The notes under the pieces are model-generated. The model had not been told where the DNA came from. It saw nothing but the letters and a program-made list of their open reading frames with translations, and searched no databases. Shown here piece by piece: positions 6,207 to 51,859 of a DNA stretch of 64,000 bases. This DNA is from a virus. The stretch's first letter is position 1; the number at the start of each line of letters is the position of its first letter. A program made the translations under genes and the position numbers. The stretch spans positions 6,369 to 70,368 of IMG/VR virus record IMGVR_UViG_3300027908_000023. One strand, given 5' to 3'.

Positions 6207-6650
6207 CTAGCGCTTTTTGAGATCGAAGGATTCCATCGTCTGCCGGCCGGACTTTAGAGCATCGCCGATCATGGCGAGCCTGGCCTCGTACATGATCTCG
6301 AACAGGGTTCTTGCCTTGGCACCGTTTTTCTTGGCCTTGTGCCAGGCAAGCAACATCTCCTGTTCGCAAAAACGCCGGCCGTCCCAATCCTGGCAGTAGC
6401 GAAACTCTGGATGGTCGCTGAACAAGGCATACAGATCGATGCGCGGGAAGCCTTCCACCTTCATGCCGTCGAACTGAGGTTCGGCTTCGCCCGTCTCAAC
6501 GATGCGATAACTGACAACCTTCTGCGACTCCTCATCGTTGGCATGGTAGACACCGCAATAGTCGCAGGCCCAGCCGGTCTGAATCTTAACGGACGGCATC
6601 GGTTTGCCGGTCCGGGGATGGAATCGTGGCTCCTGGCCGAAGACTTTCAT
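6207..6650 (-). CDS. hypothetical protein with CxxC motif
   Basis: GGAGG SD; ends in a TAG that overlaps the next SD. Confidence 0.7.
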   Translation of the reverse strand: MKVFGQEPRFHPRTGKPMPSVKIQTGWACDYCGVYHANDEESQKVVSYRIVETGEAEPQFDGMKVEGFPRIDLYALFSDHPEFRYCQDWDGRRFCEQEMLLAWHKAKKNGAKARTLFEIMYEARLAMIGDALKSGRQTMESFDLKKR

Positions 6651-9463: not shown

Positions 9464-12079
9464 TCAGAAGTGCATGGTAGCGAGATAGCGGTCGAGCATG
9501 TCATCCAGCTTCTTCTTTGCCTGTTCCAGCTGCTCCCTCTTCTCCAGGAACGTTGTGAATCGCTCGGCTGTGGCCTTCTGTGCCTGGACATCAAAACTCC
9601 CATCCGGCTTGACCGGAATCGGCACGGCAAGAACCCTCATCTTCGCCAGGGAGGCGCGGAAAGCCCGGTTGAAACTCGATTCAAAGCGCAGGACATACAG
9701 CGCGTGAAGCATGTATTCCGGGACGATCGCGGGGTCTATGATCTGAATCACCCCGCAATGATCGGTGGTGGCGAAGGGAGTTTCGGGCTGGATCAGTTTG
9801 TAGTTGAAGAGGCTATTGTCGATACTCCAGAGGATGGCAGGATGGCTGAATTCCTCGATATTGCTCTCCTCTACATACCCCATCGGCGCAACGGCATTAG
9901 CGCTGTAGAGCGGAATTTTCGTGTCGTCGTCGGTCACGTCCTTTTTCAAGACTCGCTTGCCGATGAACAGATTGAAGAAATCCTGATCGCTCAGCTTCAC
10001 TTCCCTGGTTGGCCTCTGCCGCAGAGGATTAGCGGATACGAATGATCCGTAATCGGCCAACAGCGTGTTGAATTCGGTCAGCAAGGAAGTTACCTGATCC
10101 GAGTCGGCATATTCGGCAGACTCTTCCGCGCCGGCAGCGATCCGCTCAGCGCGGGTCCACCAGCGATCAACGACCCAATGATCTTCATCTCGAAATCGCT
10201 GGATGTCTTGAATCTTGCATCGTCCCGTCCCGCTTTCAAGCAATTCCTTGGCAGCCGCGCCGACTGCGGAAAAAATCTTGTACCGCCCTTCCATCTCGGG
10301 CAAGTCGTCTTCTTCTATGTCCTCTCTCTTTACACTCCTCAATCGCTCGCCGATGTTCGTGATTAGGTAGGTGAAAACCGGCCGAGTCTGAACGTCGGCA
10401 GCATCCTGCTTCTTGGTCAATGCAAGGATATAGGTATGCTCGTTATTGGCGTAGAAGGTCTTGAGTGGAAGGGTAATGATGGCGTCAAGGTAGCACTCTC
10501 GGAGCATGTGGTTCCGCAGCTTCTTCCCGCCGACCCGTCCGAGGATGCCGTCAGGAACGATGATAAACGCGCGGCCTCCCTGTTTGAGAGACTTGATGAT
10601 CCACTCAACAGACAACCCCTCAAGCCCCAGCGCGTTGATCGGGTATTCGTTCATCGTGCGTGCGGATCGCTTGATCTCCTCCTTGATGATGCTCGACCCA
10701 CGGGTGACATAGGGCGGGTTGCTCAAAATCAGATCGTACTTCTGTTCTTCGTCCTTGATGATATGCCCGAAGGTCCCGAGGTTGTCCTTGAAGAGGGTGA
10801 ACGTCTCGTTGAATGCCCGCGCGAATTCCTGGGAGCATTGTGGGTTGGCGAAGAGGAGTTCTGCCAGATAGATCAGCATGTTCGCCTTGGCGAGGATTAT
10901 GGTCCGCTCCTCATCTCTCTCAAACCCCTTGTCGAATCCGTTCAAGACGAAAGGCGGAGAAATCACGCCACGATTACCGGGCTTATAGCAGGCGTGCATA
11001 CTCTCATTCATGTTGAGTATTTCGAGCGGGAAGCCACCAACCCCGCAATAGGGATCGCAGATCCGCTTGCCGGCGTACTGGAATGTCGGAAGATCGATAC
11101 CGGCCATGCGAATAATCGACTGGATGACCTTGCGAGGCGTGAAATACTGCCCCAATGCCTCAACTTCTTGGTTAAGAAAACTCTCGTAAATCCTCGTTTT
11201 GAACTGCTTGTCGATCTTCGTCAGCCCGCCGAACTCTTCGGCGTACTTATGAAGGTGCTCCAGCGAGCGGCGGAACAAGACGGCTTGAGAGAGATTCGCC
11301 TCGCCGTTCTCGGCGACAAAAATGGTCCCGTTTATGATAGTCGTGCCGTCTTGTGCCGGAGGGAAGAGTTTATAGATCCTCTCCCGCGAGTTCCGCGCAT
11401 AAAAATCAAGGGCATCTTCGGGGTCCGCCACCGCCTTCTGGCGAATGCGGTTGAACGCGATGTCTTCTGGCAGAACCTTCAAGTCGCTCAGAAACTTGAA
11501 GATGAACAACTCGACCACGTTGTACAGGCACTTGACGGGAGATTTCCCGGTCGCCACCCAGATCGTTTGCCATAGCCGGGTCGCCAGCGGCATCGGGTCG
11601 ATAAGTTTCGGTTGCCGAACGGTGGAATTCGTCGCTGTGATCGAGGCGTCTACTTCGTCAAGCAGGTGCTCAAGCGCCGTCGCGTTCTTCACACCGAAGG
11701 CATGAAAGACTGTCCGCAACTCGTTGCCACTGATGTCCCGAATACGCTCGCCGTTCATGGCGTTGATCCAGAACGTCTTCGTGGAATCCGTCACGATGAA
11801 AATCTTCGACAGCGCGCGGGCAACGTCGATTTCTTGAGTGATCGCCTTCTGTATCGCCTTCTCCGAGCCGAGTTCCTTCGGCTGCTTGTACTCGACAACC
11901 GCCTTAATCTTGCCGTGATGGACGACCAGGCCATCGGGCTTCTTGGCCTCAATCTTCGAGTAATCCTTTTTGGGAATGATTCCGGCGTCCTTGAGTTGCC
12001 CGAGGGTGGTGCTGCCCAGCCTGTAGTAGGTGTACTTGCCAAGCTGGAACGGGATGGTCTGAAGCAACTCTTCGCTCAT
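9464..12079 (-). CDS. Type IIG-like fused restriction endonuclease / N6-adenine methyltransferase / specificity protein
   Basis: N-terminal PD..EYK nuclease motif (KPDGL..VVEYK); GQYFTP; DPYCGVGGF (motif I); NPPY (motif IV); C-terminal TRD-like region. Confidence 0.8.
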   Translation of the reverse strand: MSEELLQTIPFQLGKYTYYRLGSTTLGQLKDAGIIPKKDYSKIEAKKPDGLVVHHGKIKAVVEYKQPKELGSEKAIQKAITQEIDVARALSKIFIVTDSTKTFWINAMNGERIRDISGNELRTVFHAFGVKNATALEHLLDEVDASITATNSTVRQPKLIDPMPLATRLWQTIWVATGKSPVKCLYNVVELFIFKFLSDLKVLPEDIAFNRIRQKAVADPEDALDFYARNSRERIYKLFPPAQDGTTIINGTIFVAENGEANLSQAVLFRRSLEHLHKYAEEFGGLTKIDKQFKTRIYESFLNQEVEALGQYFTPRKVIQSIIRMAGIDLPTFQYAGKRICDPYCGVGGFPLEILNMNESMHACYKPGNRGVISPPFVLNGFDKGFERDEERTIILAKANMLIYLAELLFANPQCSQEFARAFNETFTLFKDNLGTFGHIIKDEEQKYDLILSNPPYVTRGSSIIKEEIKRSARTMNEYPINALGLEGLSVEWIIKSLKQGGRAFIIVPDGILGRVGGKKLRNHMLRECYLDAIITLPLKTFYANNEHTYILALTKKQDAADVQTRPVFTYLITNIGERLRSVKREDIEEDDLPEMEGRYKIFSAVGAAAKELLESGTGRCKIQDIQRFRDEDHWVVDRWWTRAERIAAGAEESAEYADSDQVTSLLTEFNTLLADYGSFVSANPLRQRPTREVKLSDQDFFNLFIGKRVLKKDVTDDDTKIPLYSANAVAPMGYVEESNIEEFSHPAILWSIDNSLFNYKLIQPETPFATTDHCGVIQIIDPAIVPEYMLHALYVLRFESSFNRAFRASLAKMRVLAVPIPVKPDGSFDVQAQKATAERFTTFLEKREQLEQAKKKLDDMLDRYLATMHF

Positions 12080-42784: not shown

Positions 42785-43585
42785 TCAGATCAACCCGCCA
42801 GCCCGCATCGCCCGGCGGATCAACTCCGCCATCGTGGTATCGTTGTCGAGTGCCCGTCTCTTCAATGCTCGGTGTTCCGTCTCGCTGACCTTCAGCGCCA
42901 TGGTGACCAGTTGCTCTTCCGTCGCCGGTTGCTCGCCATCCTCCACCAATCCGCCCAGCGCGGCCAGTACGTCACTCTGTTTGATAAATGTGCGCCCCAC
43001 CACCAACCCGCCGCGTTCGCGGTCCGGCCTCACGCGACCCTGCGCCGGTTGCTTCTTGTGATGACCAGTACCGTTTTTCATCGCCCGGGATTCCAGCCAA
43101 AGAATCTGCTCCTCTTTGGATCGCTTGTGGTCATTGGCAAAGACCTGGAGTCTTTGGCTGTTATCCAGCTTCGTCGGATCGTGCTGCCGGTCAGTCCACA
43201 CATCGCCCTGGCGTACCACCAGCGTGACCGTCTCGCCGCGCGCAAGCGCCTGCTGATCGGTCAGCGGCAGACCAGCCACTTTCGAGATGAGCGGCGGATA
43301 TTCGGCGAACCGCGCCACGACCGGAGGCCAGAGCCTGCCGCTGGCGATCTGCCGGAGGTAGGTGAGCAGCGGCAATCTCAATTCCGAGATGTCCTCGCCG
43401 CGCTCTTCCAGGGTTCGCACGATCAGCGCCAACCTCAAGAGACTTGCGGCCGTGATACTGAGACTATCGGCCAGTGCCTGGCGCAGCTCTTGCGTCGAGA
43501 GGGCGACAATGCGCTCTTCCTCCCCGCTAGGTAGCAATTCCTGCATCGGCAGGGCGCGCAAGACAAGGGTTCCGTTGGTGTTCAT
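42785..43585 (-). CDS. hypothetical protein, possibly with a C-terminal RHH-like segment
   Basis: 266 aa; MALKVSETEHRALKRRAL..MAELIRRAM at the C-terminus. Confidence 0.65.
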   Translation of the reverse strand: MNTNGTLVLRALPMQELLPSGEEERIVALSTQELRQALADSLSITAASLLRLALIVRTLEERGEDISELRLPLLTYLRQIASGRLWPPVVARFAEYPPLISKVAGLPLTDQQALARGETVTLVVRQGDVWTDRQHDPTKLDNSQRLQVFANDHKRSKEEQILWLESRAMKNGTGHHKKQPAQGRVRPDRERGGLVVGRTFIKQSDVLAALGGLVEDGEQPATEEQLVTMALKVSETEHRALKRRALDNDTTMAELIRRAMRAGGLI

Positions 43586-44265
43586 TGGGTTTGTTTCTCC
43601 TCAATGTTAGTTATCTCATCCAGTTGCTTCCCGAGCCGCGCCGCATAGACGATCTGCCGGCGCTTCTTATTGATCTCGTTGCTGTTGCGCCGCACCGCTT
43701 CGTACTGGCAATGCGGCTTGTTGCATGTCTTGCGGAAGTTATGGCCGACAAAAGGCTCCTGGCAGATCGAGCAAACAATCTCCACCTTGCGCTCCGCAGC
43801 GCGTGCCCGGTTGCGCGCCAGGGATCTGCGCATCATCTCCTCGCGGTATTCATCGCTCTTGGCGTTCCAGCGCTCCAGCGCCAACCTCCGCCTCCGCTCC
43901 ATGTCGCAATCCGTGCTACAGGTGCGCGAACCGTGGTAACCGTTCCAGCCGCGCCCGCAAATCTCACAGATGTTGAGGCGCTCTTCCCGGTACGCCTGCA
44001 CCCATTCCTCGATGGCAGGCTTGCCCCAGCGCCGCCAGCGCTCATTGTGCATGTGGCAGAGTCCAGAGCGAGCCACGGCCTTCAGGCAACATACCAGACA
44101 TTTCCTCTCCGGTACGCGATACGCTGGGATGCCGAGCCGCTGCCGGCGACGGTTCAGCGTCGTCTCATTCATGCCGATGCGCCGGGCCAGCACGGCATCC
44201 GGCATGGTGCCCAGCAGCGGCAGGATCTCCGGCCAGCGGTCCTCTGGGGGCTTGGCTTCGCTCAT
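43582..44265 (-). CDS. HTH and zinc-finger-containing protein
   Basis: DAVLARRIG..LNRRRQRLGI; several CxxC..CxxxC motifs. Confidence 0.65.
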   Translation of the reverse strand: MSEAKPPEDRWPEILPLLGTMPDAVLARRIGMNETTLNRRRQRLGIPAYRVPERKCLVCCLKAVARSGLCHMHNERWRRWGKPAIEEWVQAYREERLNICEICGRGWNGYHGSRTCSTDCDMERRRRLALERWNAKSDEYREEMMRRSLARNRARAAERKVEIVCSICQEPFVGHNFRKTCNKPHCQYEAVRRNSNEINKKRRQIVYAARLGKQLDEITNIEEKQTQ

Positions 44266-44270
44266 TGCCG

Positions 44271-44870
44271 TTACTCCTTGACGACCAGCGGCTTCGCGGC
44301 CGGTTCCGGCCCGTTCCAGTTGCACGGTTGATTGCTGTTTCCCTCAGACAACGGCACGCCGCCGCAATCGCTGTTGCACTGGTAGACTCCGGCATCCAGG
44401 TCATAGCCGAACGCCCAGCCACCACATTGAGGGCAGCGAAACTCACCGGTAGTGGTTTCTTCGGCGTCCAGGTCTTCCGCAAACGCCGGATCGGATGCCA
44501 GCACTTCGCTGACCTGCGCGGCGAAGCATCTACGTATGTCGGCCAGCAGGCGTCCCTGGCGCTCCCGGTAGTGCTCGCCGGTCGGCCAACCGCCGACGTG
44601 CCGGCAAGGATCATAGGCCGACAGGGCACCGGCCAGTTCCACCGCGCTGGCGAACCACTCGGCGTGGTTGTGCCCTGGCTCTCCCTGATATTGCGAGCGG
44701 TAGGTGATGCACAGAACCCAGAGATTGTTGTCGGTCGTATAGATCGACACATCATGCCAGCGCGACTGCTCCTTGCCGAGCAAGCGACGGCCCTCGGATT
44801 CGCTTACCAGTTCGCCCGTAAAGCGCAGCGGCGCTCTGCCGCTGCGCGAGAGAATGAATGACTCAGACAT
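44271..44870 (-). CDS. hypothetical protein with a C-terminal zinc ribbon
   Basis: Start at MSESFIL; CPQCG. Confidence 0.65.
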   Translation of the reverse strand: MSESFILSRSGRAPLRFTGELVSESEGRRLLGKEQSRWHDVSIYTTDNNLWVLCITYRSQYQGEPGHNHAEWFASAVELAGALSAYDPCRHVGGWPTGEHYRERQGRLLADIRRCFAAQVSEVLASDPAFAEDLDAEETTTGEFRCPQCGGWAFGYDLDAGVYQCNSDCGGVPLSEGNSNQPCNWNGPEPAAKPLVVKE

Positions 44871-44892
44871 TGAGATTGCTCCTCTTGATGGA

Positions 44893-45993
44893 TCAGACAA
44901 CAGAAATAGCCGCATCGACCACCGCGCCGCCGTGCTCTCTCCTGCCAGCATCGCACAGCGCATCAAGGATAATTGCCATCTCAGTATTTGCCTTGAGGCC
45001 AACCGAGCCAGCCAGATCCTTCCGGCTCAGCACCTTCTCGCCCTTGGCCAGATCGCGATACTCGCCATCAACCTCCACAACCATGACCTTATGCGTGCCG
45101 ATGCCGGTTCCGCGCTCCTGCCGGACGGCGATCAGGTCCAGAACCTCGGAACCGTCCTCCAGATAACCGGCCGGTTCCGCGTCCAGCACAACCTCATCCC
45201 GGTAGGTGTCCAACGAGCGAGCGCTCACGGTATCCATCCAGTCGCGCCTTACGGTCATGGTGTGGACGCTCTCCTGTTTGCGGAACGTGCAGCGTGAGGA
45301 GTATTGCTCGCCCTTGCTCATGTGCGAAGTTGCGCCGGGCGCAACTTCCGTGCCGGGCGGAAGGACCACCACGCGAACCGCATGCCCCTGCTTGGCCGTG
45401 CGATAATCGCAAGAGTCATAGGCAGCCCGGACACCGCTCCGCGCCGGCTTCTCCAGTTCGCGCTGACGGTCATAAGCTTTCCGGCGACGCGCTTCCTCGC
45501 GGGCAGCCAGACGGCGTTCTTCCGCGACCTCAACGGCCAGAACCGCGACGGCTTCTTGCACGACCGCTTTTCGCTCGTATTGAAGCAACTCCTGCGTGTA
45601 GGTCTTGTTCGCCCGCGCTGCCATCAATGCCAGCGTGTGGAAGCCAGGATCGGCCAACAACTCCGTTGCCGTCATGGGCCGGCGATCGCGGATGCGTGCG
45701 GCCAGCGCTTCGGCCGACAACTTGGCCGGGCAGCGGTCCGCGTTGCGGTCCGTGATCCGCCAGTATTCCTTCCTGATGGCCTGGCGAACCGCGCCGGGAG
45801 CATCAGAGGCAGGACTCATGCCGTGGAAAAAGTTGTGGTTGGTAAATTGCTCAATGCTCACCGACAACTCGGTATAGCCGCGAACGCGCACCAGTGCGTC
45901 GGCCGGCATCGGCAACGGGAAGTCCGGGCAAAGGTCGGACAAGAGGTAGACGGTATCGGTGTAGGTGCTGGCGCTGACGGAAGAAGTGCTCAT
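44893..45993 (-). CDS. hypothetical protein
   Basis: Follows promoter 46078; C-terminal ILDALCDAG resembles a planctomycete motif. Confidence 0.7.
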   Translation of the reverse strand: MSTSSVSASTYTDTVYLLSDLCPDFPLPMPADALVRVRGYTELSVSIEQFTNHNFFHGMSPASDAPGAVRQAIRKEYWRITDRNADRCPAKLSAEALAARIRDRRPMTATELLADPGFHTLALMAARANKTYTQELLQYERKAVVQEAVAVLAVEVAEERRLAAREEARRRKAYDRQRELEKPARSGVRAAYDSCDYRTAKQGHAVRVVVLPPGTEVAPGATSHMSKGEQYSSRCTFRKQESVHTMTVRRDWMDTVSARSLDTYRDEVVLDAEPAGYLEDGSEVLDLIAVRQERGTGIGTHKVMVVEVDGEYRDLAKGEKVLSRKDLAGSVGLKANTEMAIILDALCDAGRREHGGAVVDAAISVV

Positions 45994-46199
45994 CTGAAGA
46001 TCCCTTAGCCAAGTTCTGCGTTGGCTTCGCATTGCCAGACAAGGCGGCTGGCTCGCTTCGTTTGTCTTTCTATCAAGCTATTCGCTGGTCGTCAAGGGAG
46101 ATTTGAGCGGAAGAGGAGATTTTTCAGAAAAGCGCTGGTTCGTCTTTGCGAACTTGAAGCGACGAAATTCGTCGTTTCAAGACGTGGCCGGTTGGCCTA

Positions 46200-46568
46200 T
46201 CAATACTTCCGTTTCCAGATCGGGAAGTAATCCAGGCCGGCGCGGCGCAGATGTTGCCAGCACCATTTCCCTTTGCTGCCGGCACTTAGGAATGATTCGT
46301 ACATGCCAACCGTCACGCCAACATACTGGTATTCGCTGCCAGCGCCAGTCTTCGCCCGGTTGAGGAACCGTACTCGCAAGATCCCCGCCGTGCCCGGTAC
46401 ACCGCCGCCATAGAAGGCGAACGAATGCACGTTGCTGGATACAACCTTGATCCATGCTTCTGATGTCGCGAAATACTCGCCGGGCGTGTATTCAATAACC
46501 TGAAGCCGCGCCAGATCGATTTCCTTGGCACGGCCGAACAGGCGACGAAAGGTGTCGCGAATGGACAT
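46200..46568 (-). CDS. KTSC domain protein
   Basis: SSNV...Y...LRVRF...Y.Y..V....Y..FLSAGSKGK. Confidence 0.75.
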   Translation of the reverse strand: MSIRDTFRRLFGRAKEIDLARLQVIEYTPGEYFATSEAWIKVVSSNVHSFAFYGGGVPGTAGILRVRFLNRAKTGAGSEYQYVGVTVGMYESFLSAGSKGKWCWQHLRRAGLDYFPIWKRKY

Positions 46569-46570
46569 GA

Positions 46571-46825
46571 TTAATCTTCGCTCGGCAGGGTCGCTTCGGC
46601 GCGCTGCCAGATCGCCAGCGCGACGGCGTTCTGTGGCCGGTTCAGGTCTTTGCGGTCCTGGCAATCATAAAGCGCCATGCGCAATACAGACTCTTCGGTT
46701 TGTAGCACTGGAGTGTTTGCGTTGAAGTACGGAGCGTTAAGGATCAAGGTCGCCTGCGCCTGAAATGCTGGCGTCATCACCAGATCCGGGTCGGCCGGGA
46801 AATGGTTGCCGGTTGAATTATTCAT
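46571..46825 (-). CDS. hypothetical protein
   Basis: ATGA overlap with the portal stop. Confidence 0.6.
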   Translation of the reverse strand: MNNSTGNHFPADPDLVMTPAFQAQATLILNAPYFNANTPVLQTEESVLRMALYDCQDRKDLNRPQNAVALAIWQRAEATLPSED

Positions 46826-49215
46826 TGAGATTCCCCGTCGCGGCGCTCCATCGATCCGCCATCTGGGAACCCAGGCTCACCGTGCGCCTGGCCGTTCGCC
46901 GGCTGAATCCCATCAGGCAGCGCCGGTTGCGTCACGGCAAAAGGCAGTGATGACGGCAGTTCTCCATTAAGGCGTTTCTCGATAATCTCCGGGATGCTGA
47001 CCGGCTGCTCTGGTGCCTGCGCCGGTTGGCTGTCTGACTCTGGTGCCTTGGCCGGTTGCTCTTTTGTCTCCAGCGGCAAGCTATGCTTCACCTTGTCGCG
47101 ATTCGAGAAGATCACCCGCCGGACCGCGAGACTCTCCCCCTCCAGCCCGGATGGTCCAACATATTTTTCCGCCGTGCCGGCGCGCAAATAGCCAAGCGTG
47201 ATATGCGGCGCATAGCGATCCTGTGTCTGTACGTGCGGCAGATGATCCGCCAGGTAGGCATGGAGCGCATGCAGATCGTCTCCGCCAACGTCCACCTTCA
47301 CGACTTCACCATCACCAGTATCCGGGAAGATGGAGATACTTCCGAGCGTGAAGCTGATCGGACCAACGCCCAGAACCGTCTTGCGCACCACGTCAACGTC
47401 GTCATCGATCAAGCCATGAAGCACCGTCAGGTGATAGTCCGATCCCGCTTGTCGGCCCTTGTCGGCCAGTTCCTCATCGGGCAGCGCATCACTGAGGAGT
47501 TTGAGCTTGGAGGCTAACGGCTCACCGATGGGTAGCATTAGGCAGCCATAGCGTTTCTTGCGCTCCTCGGCCAGTTGCTTGGCTCTTTCGGGCAGTGTGA
47601 GTGTAACGCCCTGGCTCCAACTCCTGATGGGCTTGGCCTCTGGCGGCAACCACTTGAGCGGCATCGGTTGCGACGGCGAAGAGATCGGCGTGCCAGGACC
47701 ACCACCACCCGGATGGCCACCCGGTTCTGGTGGCATGCCGGGCAGCGCCGCGCCGGGTCCGACCGGCGAACCAATCGCTGATGGAGCGCCAGGCCCAGCA
47801 GCAGCCATCGGCGCGCCCGGACCACCACCACCCGGTTGCGGCGGTTGCTCTTTCATGAGTTTCGAGTAGAGTTTCTTTTCCTCTTCACTCATGGGTTCGT
47901 TGTCGAACTCGACTCTCGCTTCATCATCAGTGAGCAAACCATATTTGAACTGCTGCTCCCTGTCAGCGCGCCGCTGTTCCGGCGAGCTATCCACCGGGTT
48001 GGGCCACCATACCCTGAGTCTTTCATCCCAGAGTGTTGCTACTTTGGTTGTCACAACCGCGCCGATGTACTGGAGCTTTGGCTTGATACACTGTTCGTGG
48101 AACTGTGTCAGTGGCCCCCACATCGCTATCTGACTGCCGGCATCCTGAAGACCCGCTATCTGTTTTGGCACTCTGAAAGTGGCCAGAATGGAGTCTCTGA
48201 GTTGATCGAAACTGCCCGTGAAATCACACTCGCTGGGCATGATCTTGAGCGGCGTGAACTTGGACCCAGATGAGAGCAAGAGCGGTTTGCCGTGGTTAAA
48301 TTCTCCCTGGAACCTGGCATAGAACTTCTCATAGTAGCGCTCCAGCACGTCATCCGATGGGTCCTGATTGCCCTCCGGCATCTCGATCACGCCCAACGGT
48401 GCCAGGACGTTCTTCATGCTCCAGAATCGCGATTGGTCGATGCTCTCGCCAACATCGATCCACTCGCTGATAGCCCGTTGAGGGCTCCAACCGCCGATCT
48501 TGGAGAGCGGGCTCGGCAACTGGAAATAGACGATCTGTTCCCACGGGATAAAGAGCGTGCCGGCGCTGGTTGGGAAGGGCCGAACCACTACTTGCAGGAT
48601 GTCGTTCTGCCCGGTCTGAATCCAACACCAATGAGAGGGCACGGTCCAGAGTTCTGAGATTTGCCCCGTGTGCGGATCGGGAATCATCCACCAGAACGCT
48701 TCTCCAGACAGGCAAAGGAACTGTATCGTCTGTGCCAGGATGTCTGAGAAGCCCGCCGTGTCCCAGGTGTTTGGGCGCTTGAAGAGCCGCATCAGCGGAT
48801 GGTTCGGCGGGACGTGCGTTACCTTCTCGTGTGGCTTGATCGTGTTGTTGGTCTTGACGTAGCGCCTGATGCGCATCGCCTTATGAATCTTCGATCCGTG
48901 ATTCAGCGAATTGCCGTCGTGCTCGACCCAGGCAACCTCGGGCTCTCTTCCCCGGATGTCATCCATGATGGCGTTGACCGCAACATAGGTCCAGTGCTTG
49001 AAGTGCTGCGGAAACTCAAGCCGCTCCCGCGACCACATGCCGGGCCAGCCCCAGCCACCCGTGGCACTGGCGAGGATGCGCGAGAAGAAGGATTCTCCAA
49101 CGCTGGTTTTTGGCCGGTTGCTGGCGCGGCTGGTGATCTGGCGCTGGTGACGCCACTGGTTGGCAGCACGGCCGGCGCGTTCGACGAGAGACAGCGTGGT
49201 ATCGAGGAAGCCCAT
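46822..49215 (-). CDS. phage portal protein fused to a C-terminal 2H phosphoesterase domain
   Basis: Lies downstream of terL; portal-like motifs (LSGEAFW, GWSP, IAGL); Pro/Gly linker; HLT and HIT motifs. Confidence 0.8.
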   Translation of the reverse strand: MGFLDTTLSLVERAGRAANQWRHQRQITSRASNRPKTSVGESFFSRILASATGGWGWPGMWSRERLEFPQHFKHWTYVAVNAIMDDIRGREPEVAWVEHDGNSLNHGSKIHKAMRIRRYVKTNNTIKPHEKVTHVPPNHPLMRLFKRPNTWDTAGFSDILAQTIQFLCLSGEAFWWMIPDPHTGQISELWTVPSHWCWIQTGQNDILQVVVRPFPTSAGTLFIPWEQIVYFQLPSPLSKIGGWSPQRAISEWIDVGESIDQSRFWSMKNVLAPLGVIEMPEGNQDPSDDVLERYYEKFYARFQGEFNHGKPLLLSSGSKFTPLKIMPSECDFTGSFDQLRDSILATFRVPKQIAGLQDAGSQIAMWGPLTQFHEQCIKPKLQYIGAVVTTKVATLWDERLRVWWPNPVDSSPEQRRADREQQFKYGLLTDDEARVEFDNEPMSEEEKKLYSKLMKEQPPQPGGGGPGAPMAAAGPGAPSAIGSPVGPGAALPGMPPEPGGHPGGGGPGTPISSPSQPMPLKWLPPEAKPIRSWSQGVTLTLPERAKQLAEERKKRYGCLMLPIGEPLASKLKLLSDALPDEELADKGRQAGSDYHLTVLHGLIDDDVDVVRKTVLGVGPISFTLGSISIFPDTGDGEVVKVDVGGDDLHALHAYLADHLPHVQTQDRYAPHITLGYLRAGTAEKYVGPSGLEGESLAVRRVIFSNRDKVKHSLPLETKEQPAKAPESDSQPAQAPEQPVSIPEIIEKRLNGELPSSLPFAVTQPALPDGIQPANGQAHGEPGFPDGGSMERRDGESQ

Positions 49216-49336
49216 GAGGGGAGATTATGCGAAAGAGTTTGACAAGGGAGCAACTTATAGCGCAGGCAGCAGCGGAACCGATCTGTTTCGGATCGGTGCC
49301 AACAGTTATGATAGCGCACCGACAACCTCATAGGAG

Positions 49337-49675
49337 ATGACCGGCATGAACGATGATAAATCCACCAATCACGCCAGAGCCATTCGCCGATTTTCATTCC
49401 TCAAGAAGTTGAAATCGGCAAGAGAAGTGTGCAGTTTTTTCTACAGTCTCAACAACAGAATCGCTACATGGAAGCCAGACGAATATCCTATTGGCAAGAT
49501 TGATAAAATGCTCCACTATTTTGGCATGGCAGCCGAAGTCAGCCCGGTAGAACTGACTCGTCTCGATGGCTTCTATCGGCGAGTCAAGGCAAGTCTTAAT
49601 GATCGCATGGGAAAAGAATGGACGGCGAGATTCCTAGCGAAACATCCATTCGGCAAGCCAGTTAAAACCAGTTGA
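49337..49675 (+). CDS. hypothetical lower-GC protein in inverted orientation between terL and portal
   Basis: AGGAG SD; more AT-rich than its neighbours. Confidence 0.55.
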   Translation: MTGMNDDKSTNHARAIRRFSFLKKLKSAREVCSFFYSLNNRIATWKPDEYPIGKIDKMLHYFGMAAEVSPVELTRLDGFYRRVKASLNDRMGKEWTARFLAKHPFGKPVKTS

Positions 49676-51224
49676 AGACTTTCTTCCGCACCGGATAGAA
49701 GGCCAGACATAATGCATCCGCATAGTCTGGTGAACGGACGCCGCGCTTGCGCATGTCTGGTTTGCTCTCGACTTGAATCTTACCGTTGTTGAGACGCTTG
49801 TGCAGCGGCATGCTCAGTTGTGCGATCAACTGATGACAGTTCGGGATGCTGATACACTCATCATCGGGATGGGCAACACCCTGAGTCACGCGCTCATGCG
49901 TCTTCTCGAAACGTCTCCGCAACGTCCACCACATTTCATCTCTCAATCGTGCGAATAGTTCCTTCGCCTTGCGATTGTTGGCCTCCGGCCAGATGCTTTC
50001 GCTCGGGCTTGAGCCGGCCTGCACGGCGACAACCTCGAAGGAGAGTTTTGTCTCCATGTTGTTCCACACGCCCTTGACGCCGGAACCGACTCCACCCACG
50101 TCATAATAGACGACCGATACACCGTTCTTTTCGGCATGGTCGCGAGCCTTGTAGGAAGTCTGAGTTGTATCCAGGTGATTCCAGGCGATGGGGTCTTTGA
50201 CGACCGGTCCGGCACGCCAGATAAAGACACTCTCGTTATCGCCTTCATCGGCAACGTCCAGACCGGCTGACTTCTGTGCGCTCTCTTCCAGCGGCAGATT
50301 GATAGCGGAGCGAACCCATGCGGCCGGGATCGTGATGCCCTGTACGGATGCCGTATAGTCGATGTCGATGTTGCTCGCTACCGTCACTTCATCATAGGTA
50401 TCCCGCATGTGTTGATACCAGGCAGCATCCTTTCTCGGATCATCGGTCCATTTCAGAGTAAAAATACGCTCATGTGCAAAAGAGAATCGCTTGCGCGCGA
50501 ACGAGTTACCTAGACCATTAGGGGTTGAGACATTGACTCTCAATAGGGCATTGCTAAGAAGCGAACTGTCCACCAGATCAGGATGCGGGATGAAGGCGGC
50601 TTCGTCGATAAAATAAACTCCGGTACGCCCGCCGCGCCCTATACCGTCACCACCTTCGCCGCGAATCGTGGCATCATTGGTCGGATTGATCAGTTTGCCT
50701 TCGGCGGAGTGTTTCTGAAAGCTGAACCGGCGCGGCCATAGCCAGAGCGGTAAGCCACGGATCAGCATTCTGAGCTTCTCAAAAATGCTGTCCGGGTCGC
50801 CGATGGTATCGACCAGTTCCAGAATTCTACTGCCAAAGCCAACCGAGTATCCAGGTCGGAACAACCAGCCATGAATCGCATAGAGACAACACAGCCACGT
50901 AGCGCCCATCTCGCGGGATTTCTCAACGATGACTTCTTGATCGTGTCGCGTCTCCACTGCCTGGCGCTCGTGCATGGCCAGCCAACGGAGGAACTCCCGT
51001 TGCTTGGGAAACAGGTTGAACGGGATAACTTTCTCGACACCCTTGGGATCGTAGGTGTTGACCCAATGATCCGCGAACCACTCGATGGAGGCTTCGCAAT
51101 AGGCGCGCTCCAGAACGTAGCTGCCTTCCTTCTCCACCTTGTTCGCATAGGCCCAGCGCTCATCAACATTGAATCCATGAGGCGCTGTCACAGGAGTTTT
51201 CTCGGTTGATCGCATGTCGCTCAT
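49662..51224 (-). CDS. terL: terminase large subunit
   Basis: EKSREMG (Walker A), FIDEAAF (Walker B), STPNG, GLDVA and SPDYADA nuclease motifs. Confidence 0.92.
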   Translation of the reverse strand: MSDMRSTEKTPVTAPHGFNVDERWAYANKVEKEGSYVLERAYCEASIEWFADHWVNTYDPKGVEKVIPFNLFPKQREFLRWLAMHERQAVETRHDQEVIVEKSREMGATWLCCLYAIHGWLFRPGYSVGFGSRILELVDTIGDPDSIFEKLRMLIRGLPLWLWPRRFSFQKHSAEGKLINPTNDATIRGEGGDGIGRGGRTGVYFIDEAAFIPHPDLVDSSLLSNALLRVNVSTPNGLGNSFARKRFSFAHERIFTLKWTDDPRKDAAWYQHMRDTYDEVTVASNIDIDYTASVQGITIPAAWVRSAINLPLEESAQKSAGLDVADEGDNESVFIWRAGPVVKDPIAWNHLDTTQTSYKARDHAEKNGVSVVYYDVGGVGSGVKGVWNNMETKLSFEVVAVQAGSSPSESIWPEANNRKAKELFARLRDEMWWTLRRRFEKTHERVTQGVAHPDDECISIPNCHQLIAQLSMPLHKRLNNGKIQVESKPDMRKRGVRSPDYADALCLAFYPVRKKVFNWF

Positions 51225-51859
51225 CAGTTGTTTCCAGTGCCAGCCGTGCCGCCGTCTACCTTCCAGTTCGCATTCCTCTCTCTCAATACCCGCATCTTCT
51301 CCTCCTGAGACAGCGCGCTGAACTGTTCCGCCGTCATGCCGTTGTGCTTGACGTTGATATCTCCACCCTCAGCGCCGGTGTGCTCGATCCTCATATTTTC
51401 CCTGAACTCGCCTGGCTTGTGCGCCTTGAGCAAGAACATCAACAGCGCATCGGAAAATCTCCTCTGCATGATCGGGATGAACTTGGCACCACCAGCGCCT
51501 GGACGAACCTGATTGCCGTCCTGATCAACCCAGAAGCCAACAATCTGCCCCTTGTACAGAATCGGCTCCTCAACGCCTTCAAAGGCGCGCCGTCGCGCTT
51601 CCAGTTTCAACTTGTCGATGGAGTCTTCCAGCGCGTCCTTGCAGTCCTGCTCAAACGCTGGATCGAGCTTGCGGGCACGGTAATAGGTGCCGCGCTTGAC
51701 ACCAACCTTGGTCAGCGCCGCCCAGGTGTTGGCCGTCTTGCGCAACTCTTCCAGAAAGATCGGCTTCCAGTCCACGTCCTTGGGAAGCCTGACGCGCACA
51801 TAGGTTTCGCCCGCGCAGTATTCGGCAATGTTGATGTCGTAGGGGTGTTTCTTGGACAT
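51224..51859 (-). CDS. terS: terminase small subunit
   Basis: HTH (GVKRGTYY.AR..DPAF), EARRRAFEG, SDALLMFLLK; adjacent to terL. Confidence 0.8.
   Translation of the reverse strand: MSKKHPYDINIAEYCAGETYVRVRLPKDVDWKPIFLEELRKTANTWAALTKVGVKRGTYYRARKLDPAFEQDCKDALEDSIDKLKLEARRRAFEGVEEPILYKGQIVGFWVDQDGNQVRPGAGGAKFIPIMQRRFSDALLMFLLKAHKPGEFRENMRIEHTGAEGGDINVKHNGMTAEQFSALSQEEKMRVLRERNANWKVDGGTAGTGNN

Follow-up and report, generated by a model that had tools for sequence, protein, structure and literature searches.

The 64,000-nucleotide stretch of virus DNA analyzed here (the window; positions 6,369 to 70,368 of IMG/VR record IMGVR_UViG_3300027908_000023) carries on its minus strand an uninterrupted open reading frame (ORF) in which a phage portal protein is joined to a phosphoesterase domain of the 2H type (P0001; 46822–49215, stop codon included, 797 codons and 797 amino acids). 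The portal domain, residues 137 to 435 (47911–48807, minus strand), matches the Pfam family PF04860 Phage_portal from model position 33 to 318 of 321 (E = 1.6e-28, 100.3 bits against a cut-off of 39.1), and the PHROG portal families phrog_2662 and phrog_12 match as well, with coverage of residues 114 to 465. A low-complexity linker rich in Pro, Gly, and Ala follows at residues 461 to 545 (47581–47835, minus strand; 25% Pro, 22% Gly), then the 2H domain at residues 556 to 715 (47071–47550, minus strand), and finally a low-complexity tail of 82 residues rich in Pro, Glu, Gln, Ala, and Gly (716 to 797; 46825–47070, minus strand) that has no family match. An earlier reading of the DNA letters alone (the sequence-only reading) had described a portal protein fused to a 2H phosphoesterase, with a Pro/Gly-rich linker at about 47650–47850 and a 2H domain at about 47100–47560; the fusion is borne out by a single ORF with PF04860 and PF13563 both above their cut-offs, and linker and folded domain are now placed as given above.

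The genes for the small terminase subunit, the large terminase subunit, and the portal lie in this order on one strand. On this strand, the first gene upstream of the portal gene is that of the large subunit (49662–51224, minus strand; phrog_2, 7e-30), and the small subunit gene adjoins it (51224–51859, minus strand; phrog_4044, 2.4e-32). PF04860 matches once in the 98.5-kb virus record, which CheckV rates as 82% complete, and no second portal was detected in that record by PF04860, other portal families not having been searched. Because it is terminase-adjacent and holds the only PF04860 match in the record, the portal-2H protein is, as judged from sequence, the working portal of the phage, of the HK97 type, and not a spare copy. 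The gap of 446 bp between the terminase and portal genes contains a 112-amino-acid ORF on the opposite strand (49337–49675, plus strand), annotated as a 109-amino-acid gene on the European Nucleotide Archive (ENA) contig and with no family match on record.

We confirmed that the portal-2H fusion is genuine and not an assembly artefact. The two halves share one frame, and every other frame has 7 to 12 stop codons. The identical protein is called on six contigs (50–200 kb), the longest of which is a 132,578-bp ENA scaffold from a soil metagenome. Logan contigs from two soil-metagenome runs, built with a different assembler, cover 46500–49500 with 0 differences at ~16x depth; the source sample itself may have supplied these runs, which therefore count as an independent assembly but not as an independent sample. 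The fusion thus passed the check for an assembly or frameshift artefact that the sequence-only reading had named as a way to refute it. The artefact in question would be an indel in the GC-rich linker that brings a portal gene and a separate 2H gene falsely into one frame. Residues 461 to 545 are free of stop codons in all three frames, so a single indel there would escape notice in the sequence alone. Against this stand the exact agreement of two assemblers and the presence of in-frame portal-2H proteins, with two portal families, in unrelated phages. A separate 2H gene would, in addition, have no start led by a Shine-Dalgarno (SD) sequence: no SD-led internal start was found in the sequence ahead of the 2H domain, so that the domain is expected only as part of the portal. 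Taken together, the chance of an artefact appears exceedingly small.

Fold and family of the 2H domain

The modeled fold of the domain is beyond doubt a two-lobed alpha+beta 2H fold. In a Pfam scan of the isolated domain, PF13563 (2_5_RNA_ligase2) matches residues 594 to 683 with a score of 42 bits (cut-off 27). AlphaFold2 run on an alignment of 51 homologous domains gave a mean predicted local distance difference test score (pLDDT) of 93.5 and a predicted template modeling score (pTM) of 0.87. Foldseek comparison with the PDB returned almost exclusively named 2H enzymes, and the VIA matches were likewise 2H proteins, which settles the fold check that had been proposed for the domain. The two best Foldseek matches are both Acb1 of Erwinia phage FBB1 (7T27 and 7T26, E ~3e-6), followed by LigT-type proteins, the phosphodiesterase of Burkholderia phage BCSR5, AKAP18, a plant cyclic phosphodiesterase (CPDase), and Usb1. 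In the full-length AlphaFold2 model the linker (residues 461 to 536) has a pLDDT below 50, the tail also falls below 50 for the most part and contains a single short helix (residues 742 to 749), and the portal part of the monomer is of low confidence, with a shallow alignment.

Outside the portal part, HxT motifs occur only twice: as H595-L-T597-V (residues 595 to 598; 47422–47433, minus strand) and as H671-I-T673-L (residues 671 to 674; 47194–47205, minus strand), the latter inside Y-A-P-H-I-T-L-G-Y, as the sequence-only reading had noticed. They lie 76 residues apart, within the 70 to 85 residues typical of the superfamily. Across the 51 homologous domains, which share 34–43% identity with this one, H595, T597, P670, and H671 do not vary, and T673 is nearly constant. 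By this conservation the catalytic tetrad is intact.

The sequence-only reading had further called the domain Acb1/gp57B-like, on the grounds of a similar second motif in T4 gp57B; that motif, DDYTPHITLSY, is present in the T4 record. As a like-for-like family test we searched a profile of the 51 sequences against all PDB sequences. The best match was the Acb1-type protein of phage BCSR5 (9Q2G, E = 2.8e-6), ahead of the plant CPDase (1FSI, 6e-4), Acb1 of phage FBB1 (7T26, 7e-4), YjcG (2D4G, 0.06), and a LigT-type CPDase of Deinococcus (5H7E, 0.6); the LigT proteins of E. coli and Thermus were absent from the matches of this profile in the PDB. Profile-profile alignment with hhalign joined the clade to a 12-sequence Acb1 alignment with 94.5% probability (E = 7e-8, 100 columns spanning both motifs). 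The corresponding value for an enterobacterial ThpR alignment was 2.8%, a weak control in view of its ~79% mean column identity. The ThpR/LigT equivalog TIGR02258 scored 26.9 bits against a cut-off of 65.7, with only the second half aligned.

Other results weigh against an Acb1-like enzyme that acts on immune nucleotides. The Acb1 family PF23474 scores 15.4 bits, below its gathering cut-off of 27; it is matched at E<=0.01 by 45 of the 51 clade members, and those scored individually reach 20–24 bits, also below the cut-off. In the structural model, the fold resembles LigT-type enzymes at least as well as Acb1, so that fold alone does not decide between the two. Ligand binding by Acb1 involves Y12, W74, F107, and W147, which stack on the bases, and E141, which contacts adenine (T4 numbering; Hobbs et al. 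2022, PMC9117128). The hhalign alignment spans Acb1 columns 40–139 only, with Y12, E141, and W147 outside it; within it, the position of F107 is Gln in this protein and His in the clade consensus, and W74 corresponds to the invariant F630.

In our reading of these sequence comparisons, the nearest characterized relatives are the Acb1 enzymes, yet the domain belongs to a separate clade. The Acb1-like label thus stands insofar as Acb1 proteins are the nearest solved proteins by profile, but not as a statement of family membership. Shared with Acb1 (T4 gp57B; FBB1 7T26/7T27; BCSR5 9Q2G/9Q2Y) are the 2H fold, the HxT/HxT tetrad, the phage origin, and an aromatic residue at the W74 position; Acb1 is a free protein of ~150 amino acids, whereas here a domain of ~160 amino acids is fused to a portal. 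The ThpR/LigT proteins (E. coli ThpR 5LDI; Thermus TT0787 1IUH; Deinococcus CPDase 5H7E) are cellular stand-alone enzymes, not virion proteins, and ranked far below Acb1 in the profile search.

The clade and its portal fusions

A HMMER search with the domain over 1.84 billion cluster representatives gave 4050 matches at E<=1e-3, of which 1881 reach E<=1e-10. Among the best 150 clade matches, 130 are longer than 400 amino acids and 83 longer than 1000, the longest having 5127. We examined 17 long relatives, which carry LPD38, ART-PolyVal, ddrB-ParB, SNF2/Strawberry-notch helicases, Zeta toxin, MuF, KTSC (in 1 of the 17), lysozyme, and NUDIX. Among 47 mid-sized relatives, this protein included, there are five with Portal_Mu, four with Phage_portal, and three with MuF, and others carry ART, RelA_SpoT, Zeta toxin, or topoisomerase IB. 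These associations place the domain in the 2H clade that occurs in polyvalent head-packaged effector proteins.

Fusions of this 2H clade to a portal therefore occur elsewhere. P0076, P0093, and P0120, each scored individually, consist of Portal_Mu and 2H. P0127 (L039:6001-8772) lies directly after the terminase gene on an 87.6-kb contig and consists of Phage_portal and 2H with a GGACT gamma-glutamyl cyclotransferase-like domain at its C-terminus. P0129 has Phage_portal, 2H, and a further C-terminal part, a domain of ~145 amino acids without an assignment. The position of this third C-terminal module of P0127 and P0129 is taken in the present phage by the disordered tail only. A low-complexity spacer of Pro, Gly, Ala, Gln, and Glu separates portal and 2H in every fusion examined. 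Since the fusion occurs with two different portal families, it has arisen more than once.

The portal-2H fusion is sporadic. The sequence-only reading had proposed a survey of its frequency, which gave portal fusions in 9 of the 47 mid-sized relatives and in 1 of 26 distant portal relatives from a profile scan of IMG/VR, where only the closest, L009, has the 2H domain. A scan of IMG/VR for close relatives with the portal part gave no match, and a word-index search for homologues of the 2H region recovered nothing beyond the protein itself. A tblastn search of 50,697 GenBank phage records with the 2H domain gave only two weak matches, in unannotated uncultured jumbo phages.

Immediately downstream of the portal-2H gene is an 84-amino-acid gene with no assigned function (46571–46825, minus strand), whose start codon overlaps the portal stop codon in the sequence ATGA. 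A KTSC-domain gene (46200–46664, minus strand; Pfam KTSC, 2.4e-6) lies two genes downstream of the portal. Its product is homologous by phmmer to residues 1949 to 2020 of P0033 and 1106 to 1176 of P0008, two polyvalent proteins that also bear this 2H clade. Because the KTSC gene matches segments inside these proteins, the portal-proximal KTSC and 2H sequences resemble a polyvalent effector protein broken up into separate parts. A scan for sigma-70 promoters and terminators around the portal-2H gene gave matches at chance level only.

The architecture and its proposed role have been in print since 2017, and this phage is a further example. The 2H domain in polyvalent proteins and its portal and MuF fusions were described by Iyer, Burroughs, Anand, de Souza, and Aravind (2017, J Bacteriol; PMC5512222), who never saw this 2H version with RNA ligases and proposed either a Usb1-like RNase role or the breakdown of host-defence nucleotides. 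The same group later argued that phage 2H domains, when fused to MuF or portal, probably enter the head and are injected to counter (oligo)nucleotide immune signaling (Viruses 2022; PMC9503650). We found no report in the literature that tests a portal- or MuF-fused 2H member. The protein described here shares with the fusions of Iyer et al. the N-terminal portal, the low-complexity spacer, the C-terminal 2H domain, the proposed role, and the 2H clade itself, its best homologues (34–50% identity) lying in LPD38/ART-PolyVal/SNF2/MuF giants and in Portal_Mu and Phage_portal fusions. It differs from them in its HK97-type portal, its origin in a ~132-kb soil phage, its unusually long Pro/Gly linker, the extra acidic tail of 82 residues, and a stand-alone KTSC gene two genes downstream in place of further fused domains.

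Possible roles of the portal-borne enzyme

In solved portals the C-termini form a crown that faces the capsid interior, and for this reason a C-terminal enzyme would be expected inside the head. Each portal subunit would carry a 2H enzyme on a flexible Pro/Gly tether of ~85 residues, which would place up to 12 copies beside the DNA end and add ~36 kDa of chain per subunit. The enzyme may be cargo for the next host, either leaving with the DNA after a cut in the linker or acting close to the portal; this cargo role is suggested by the domains that accompany the clade. Its chemistry would be the metal-independent two-His mechanism of Acb1, and its substrates could be cyclic oligonucleotides of the type used by CBASS (cyclic oligonucleotide-based antiphage signaling) or type III CRISPR, or 2'-5'-linked oligonucleotides. 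On this analysis, we tentatively regard as most likely a virion-borne counter-defence enzyme that hydrolyzes host immune nucleotide signals, as Acb1 does. The counter-defence idea of the sequence-only reading is in this respect reasonable, but it had already been published.

A bolder version makes the portal ring itself the delivery vehicle, and we consider it possible at best. Twelve tethered Acb1-like enzymes would be cut at the linker, leave with the DNA, and destroy the cyclic-oligonucleotide alarm at entry, before phage expression, and KTSC and 2H would be the remains of a 'disassembled' polyvalent effector. No match to an HK97-type capsid (PF05065), S78, or ClpP protease was found in the 98.5-kb record or in a further ~19 kb of the 132.6-kb contig, so that the cleavage step is conjecture. 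The delivery ring is also already a printed prediction, and novelty would lie in its demonstration. The ADP-ribosyltransferase Alt of T4 and the effectors fused to MuF/SPP1 gp7 are likewise enzyme cargo brought into the head by a head- or portal-associated module (PMC5512222), but each of them is a protein of its own that attaches to the portal or scaffold, whereas here the cargo would be covalent in every portal subunit.

Alternatively, the same head-carried enzyme could act on RNA, either healing tRNA or mRNA ends as a 2',3'-cyclic phosphodiesterase or serving as a Usb1-like RNase; the ends would be those cut by host anticodon or abortive-infection nucleases, at DNA entry or late in the producing cell. 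In its favor, the phage encodes RNA-repair functions at other loci (Thg1-like, HAD_SAK_2, and a PF09414 RNA ligase), but these show no operon link to the portal gene, the ligase being ~52 kb and the Thg1-like and HAD_SAK_2 genes ~22 kb away. The low TIGR02258 score, the lead of Acb1 over LigT-type proteins in the PDB profile search, and the weak hhalign match to ThpR, although obtained with a low-diversity alignment, also speak against it, as does the lack of RNA ligases alongside the clade in Iyer et al. (PMC5512222). We therefore hold action on RNA to be doubtful, though a real possibility. A non-catalytic part for the domain, as a structural or nucleic-acid-binding appendage of the portal crown, would have a parallel in some 2H-fold proteins, such as AKAP18, that bind nucleotides without a known catalytic role. 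Set against it is the invariance of H595, T597, and H671, with T673 nearly invariant, at 34–43% identity, and we regard it as very improbable.

It is also conceivable that the enzyme is never delivered and works late in the producing cell, where free or procapsid-bound portal would clear cyclic nucleotide alarms raised by late proteins, the fusion merely coupling the expression and amount of 2H to those of the portal. In the phages studied, the portal ring is fixed in place and is not ejected, no protease or cleavage site was identified, and the 2H domain is without a translation start of its own, all of which would fit such a role. A free enzyme such as T4 Acb1 would serve equally well, however, and in polyvalent proteins the clade accompanies MuF, ART-PolyVal, and further domains, the studied prototypes of which are carried in the head and injected. 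A role confined to the producing cell thus seems unlikely. To our knowledge, all characterized anti-CBASS and anti-signaling nucleases (Acb1, Apyc1) are free proteins made after infection has started. If the virion-borne counter-defence enzyme is real, one built into the portal could act before phage gene expression and close the window for abortive-infection signaling. The clade is very large, and the function of its portal- and MuF-fused members is a prediction that has stood since 2017; the window adds one more case, from a lineage of soil phages that is poorly sampled, and no new principle.

Other genes of the phage

The genes after the portal (42785–46825, minus strand; 84, 154, 379, 243, 247, and 266 amino acids) have no capsid, scaffold, or protease match, the 243-amino-acid product having been covered by a Pfam scan only and the 84-, 247-, and 266-amino-acid products by precomputed annotation only. 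The packaging genes have non-structural neighbors, and the genes for head and tail have either diverged strongly or lie in the remaining ~15 kb of the 132.6-kb contig.

Just past the right end of the window, ~22 kb from the portal gene, are two genes that lie two genes apart. One encodes a Thg1-like tRNA-His guanylyltransferase (L004:6810-7625, equal to G000 76809-77624, minus strand; phrog_4717, E = 1.7e-80), and the other a HAD_SAK_2 protein, 'HAD domain in Swiss Army Knife RNA repair proteins' (L004:8961-9470, equal to G000 78960-79469, minus strand; PF18143, E = 1.9e-18). Together they look like a module for RNA or tRNA repair. The 98.5-kb record contains no match to RtcB and no second 2H gene. 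The only RNA ligase found is a PF09414 protein of 293 amino acids on ENA scaffold_31 (L037:8732-9613, plus strand), ~52 kb from the portal; the same scaffold encodes an HD_4 protein with a RelA/SpoT-type HD domain (L037:11026-11553, plus strand). Both genes are present on the 132.6-kb contig only, outside the IMG/VR record. A role of the 2H domain coupled to this ligase was considered and set aside, the ligase being in the genome but unlinked to the portal gene.

The largest ORF (871 amino acids; 9464–12079, minus strand) encodes an Eco57I-type N6 DNA methylase (PF02384, 5e-25; PF07669). A transposase gene (L004:4062-5354, equal to G000 74061-75353, plus strand; phrog_506, E = 1.4e-42) occurs besides the TnpB elements in the window, and the phage genome has several elements of the insertion sequence type.

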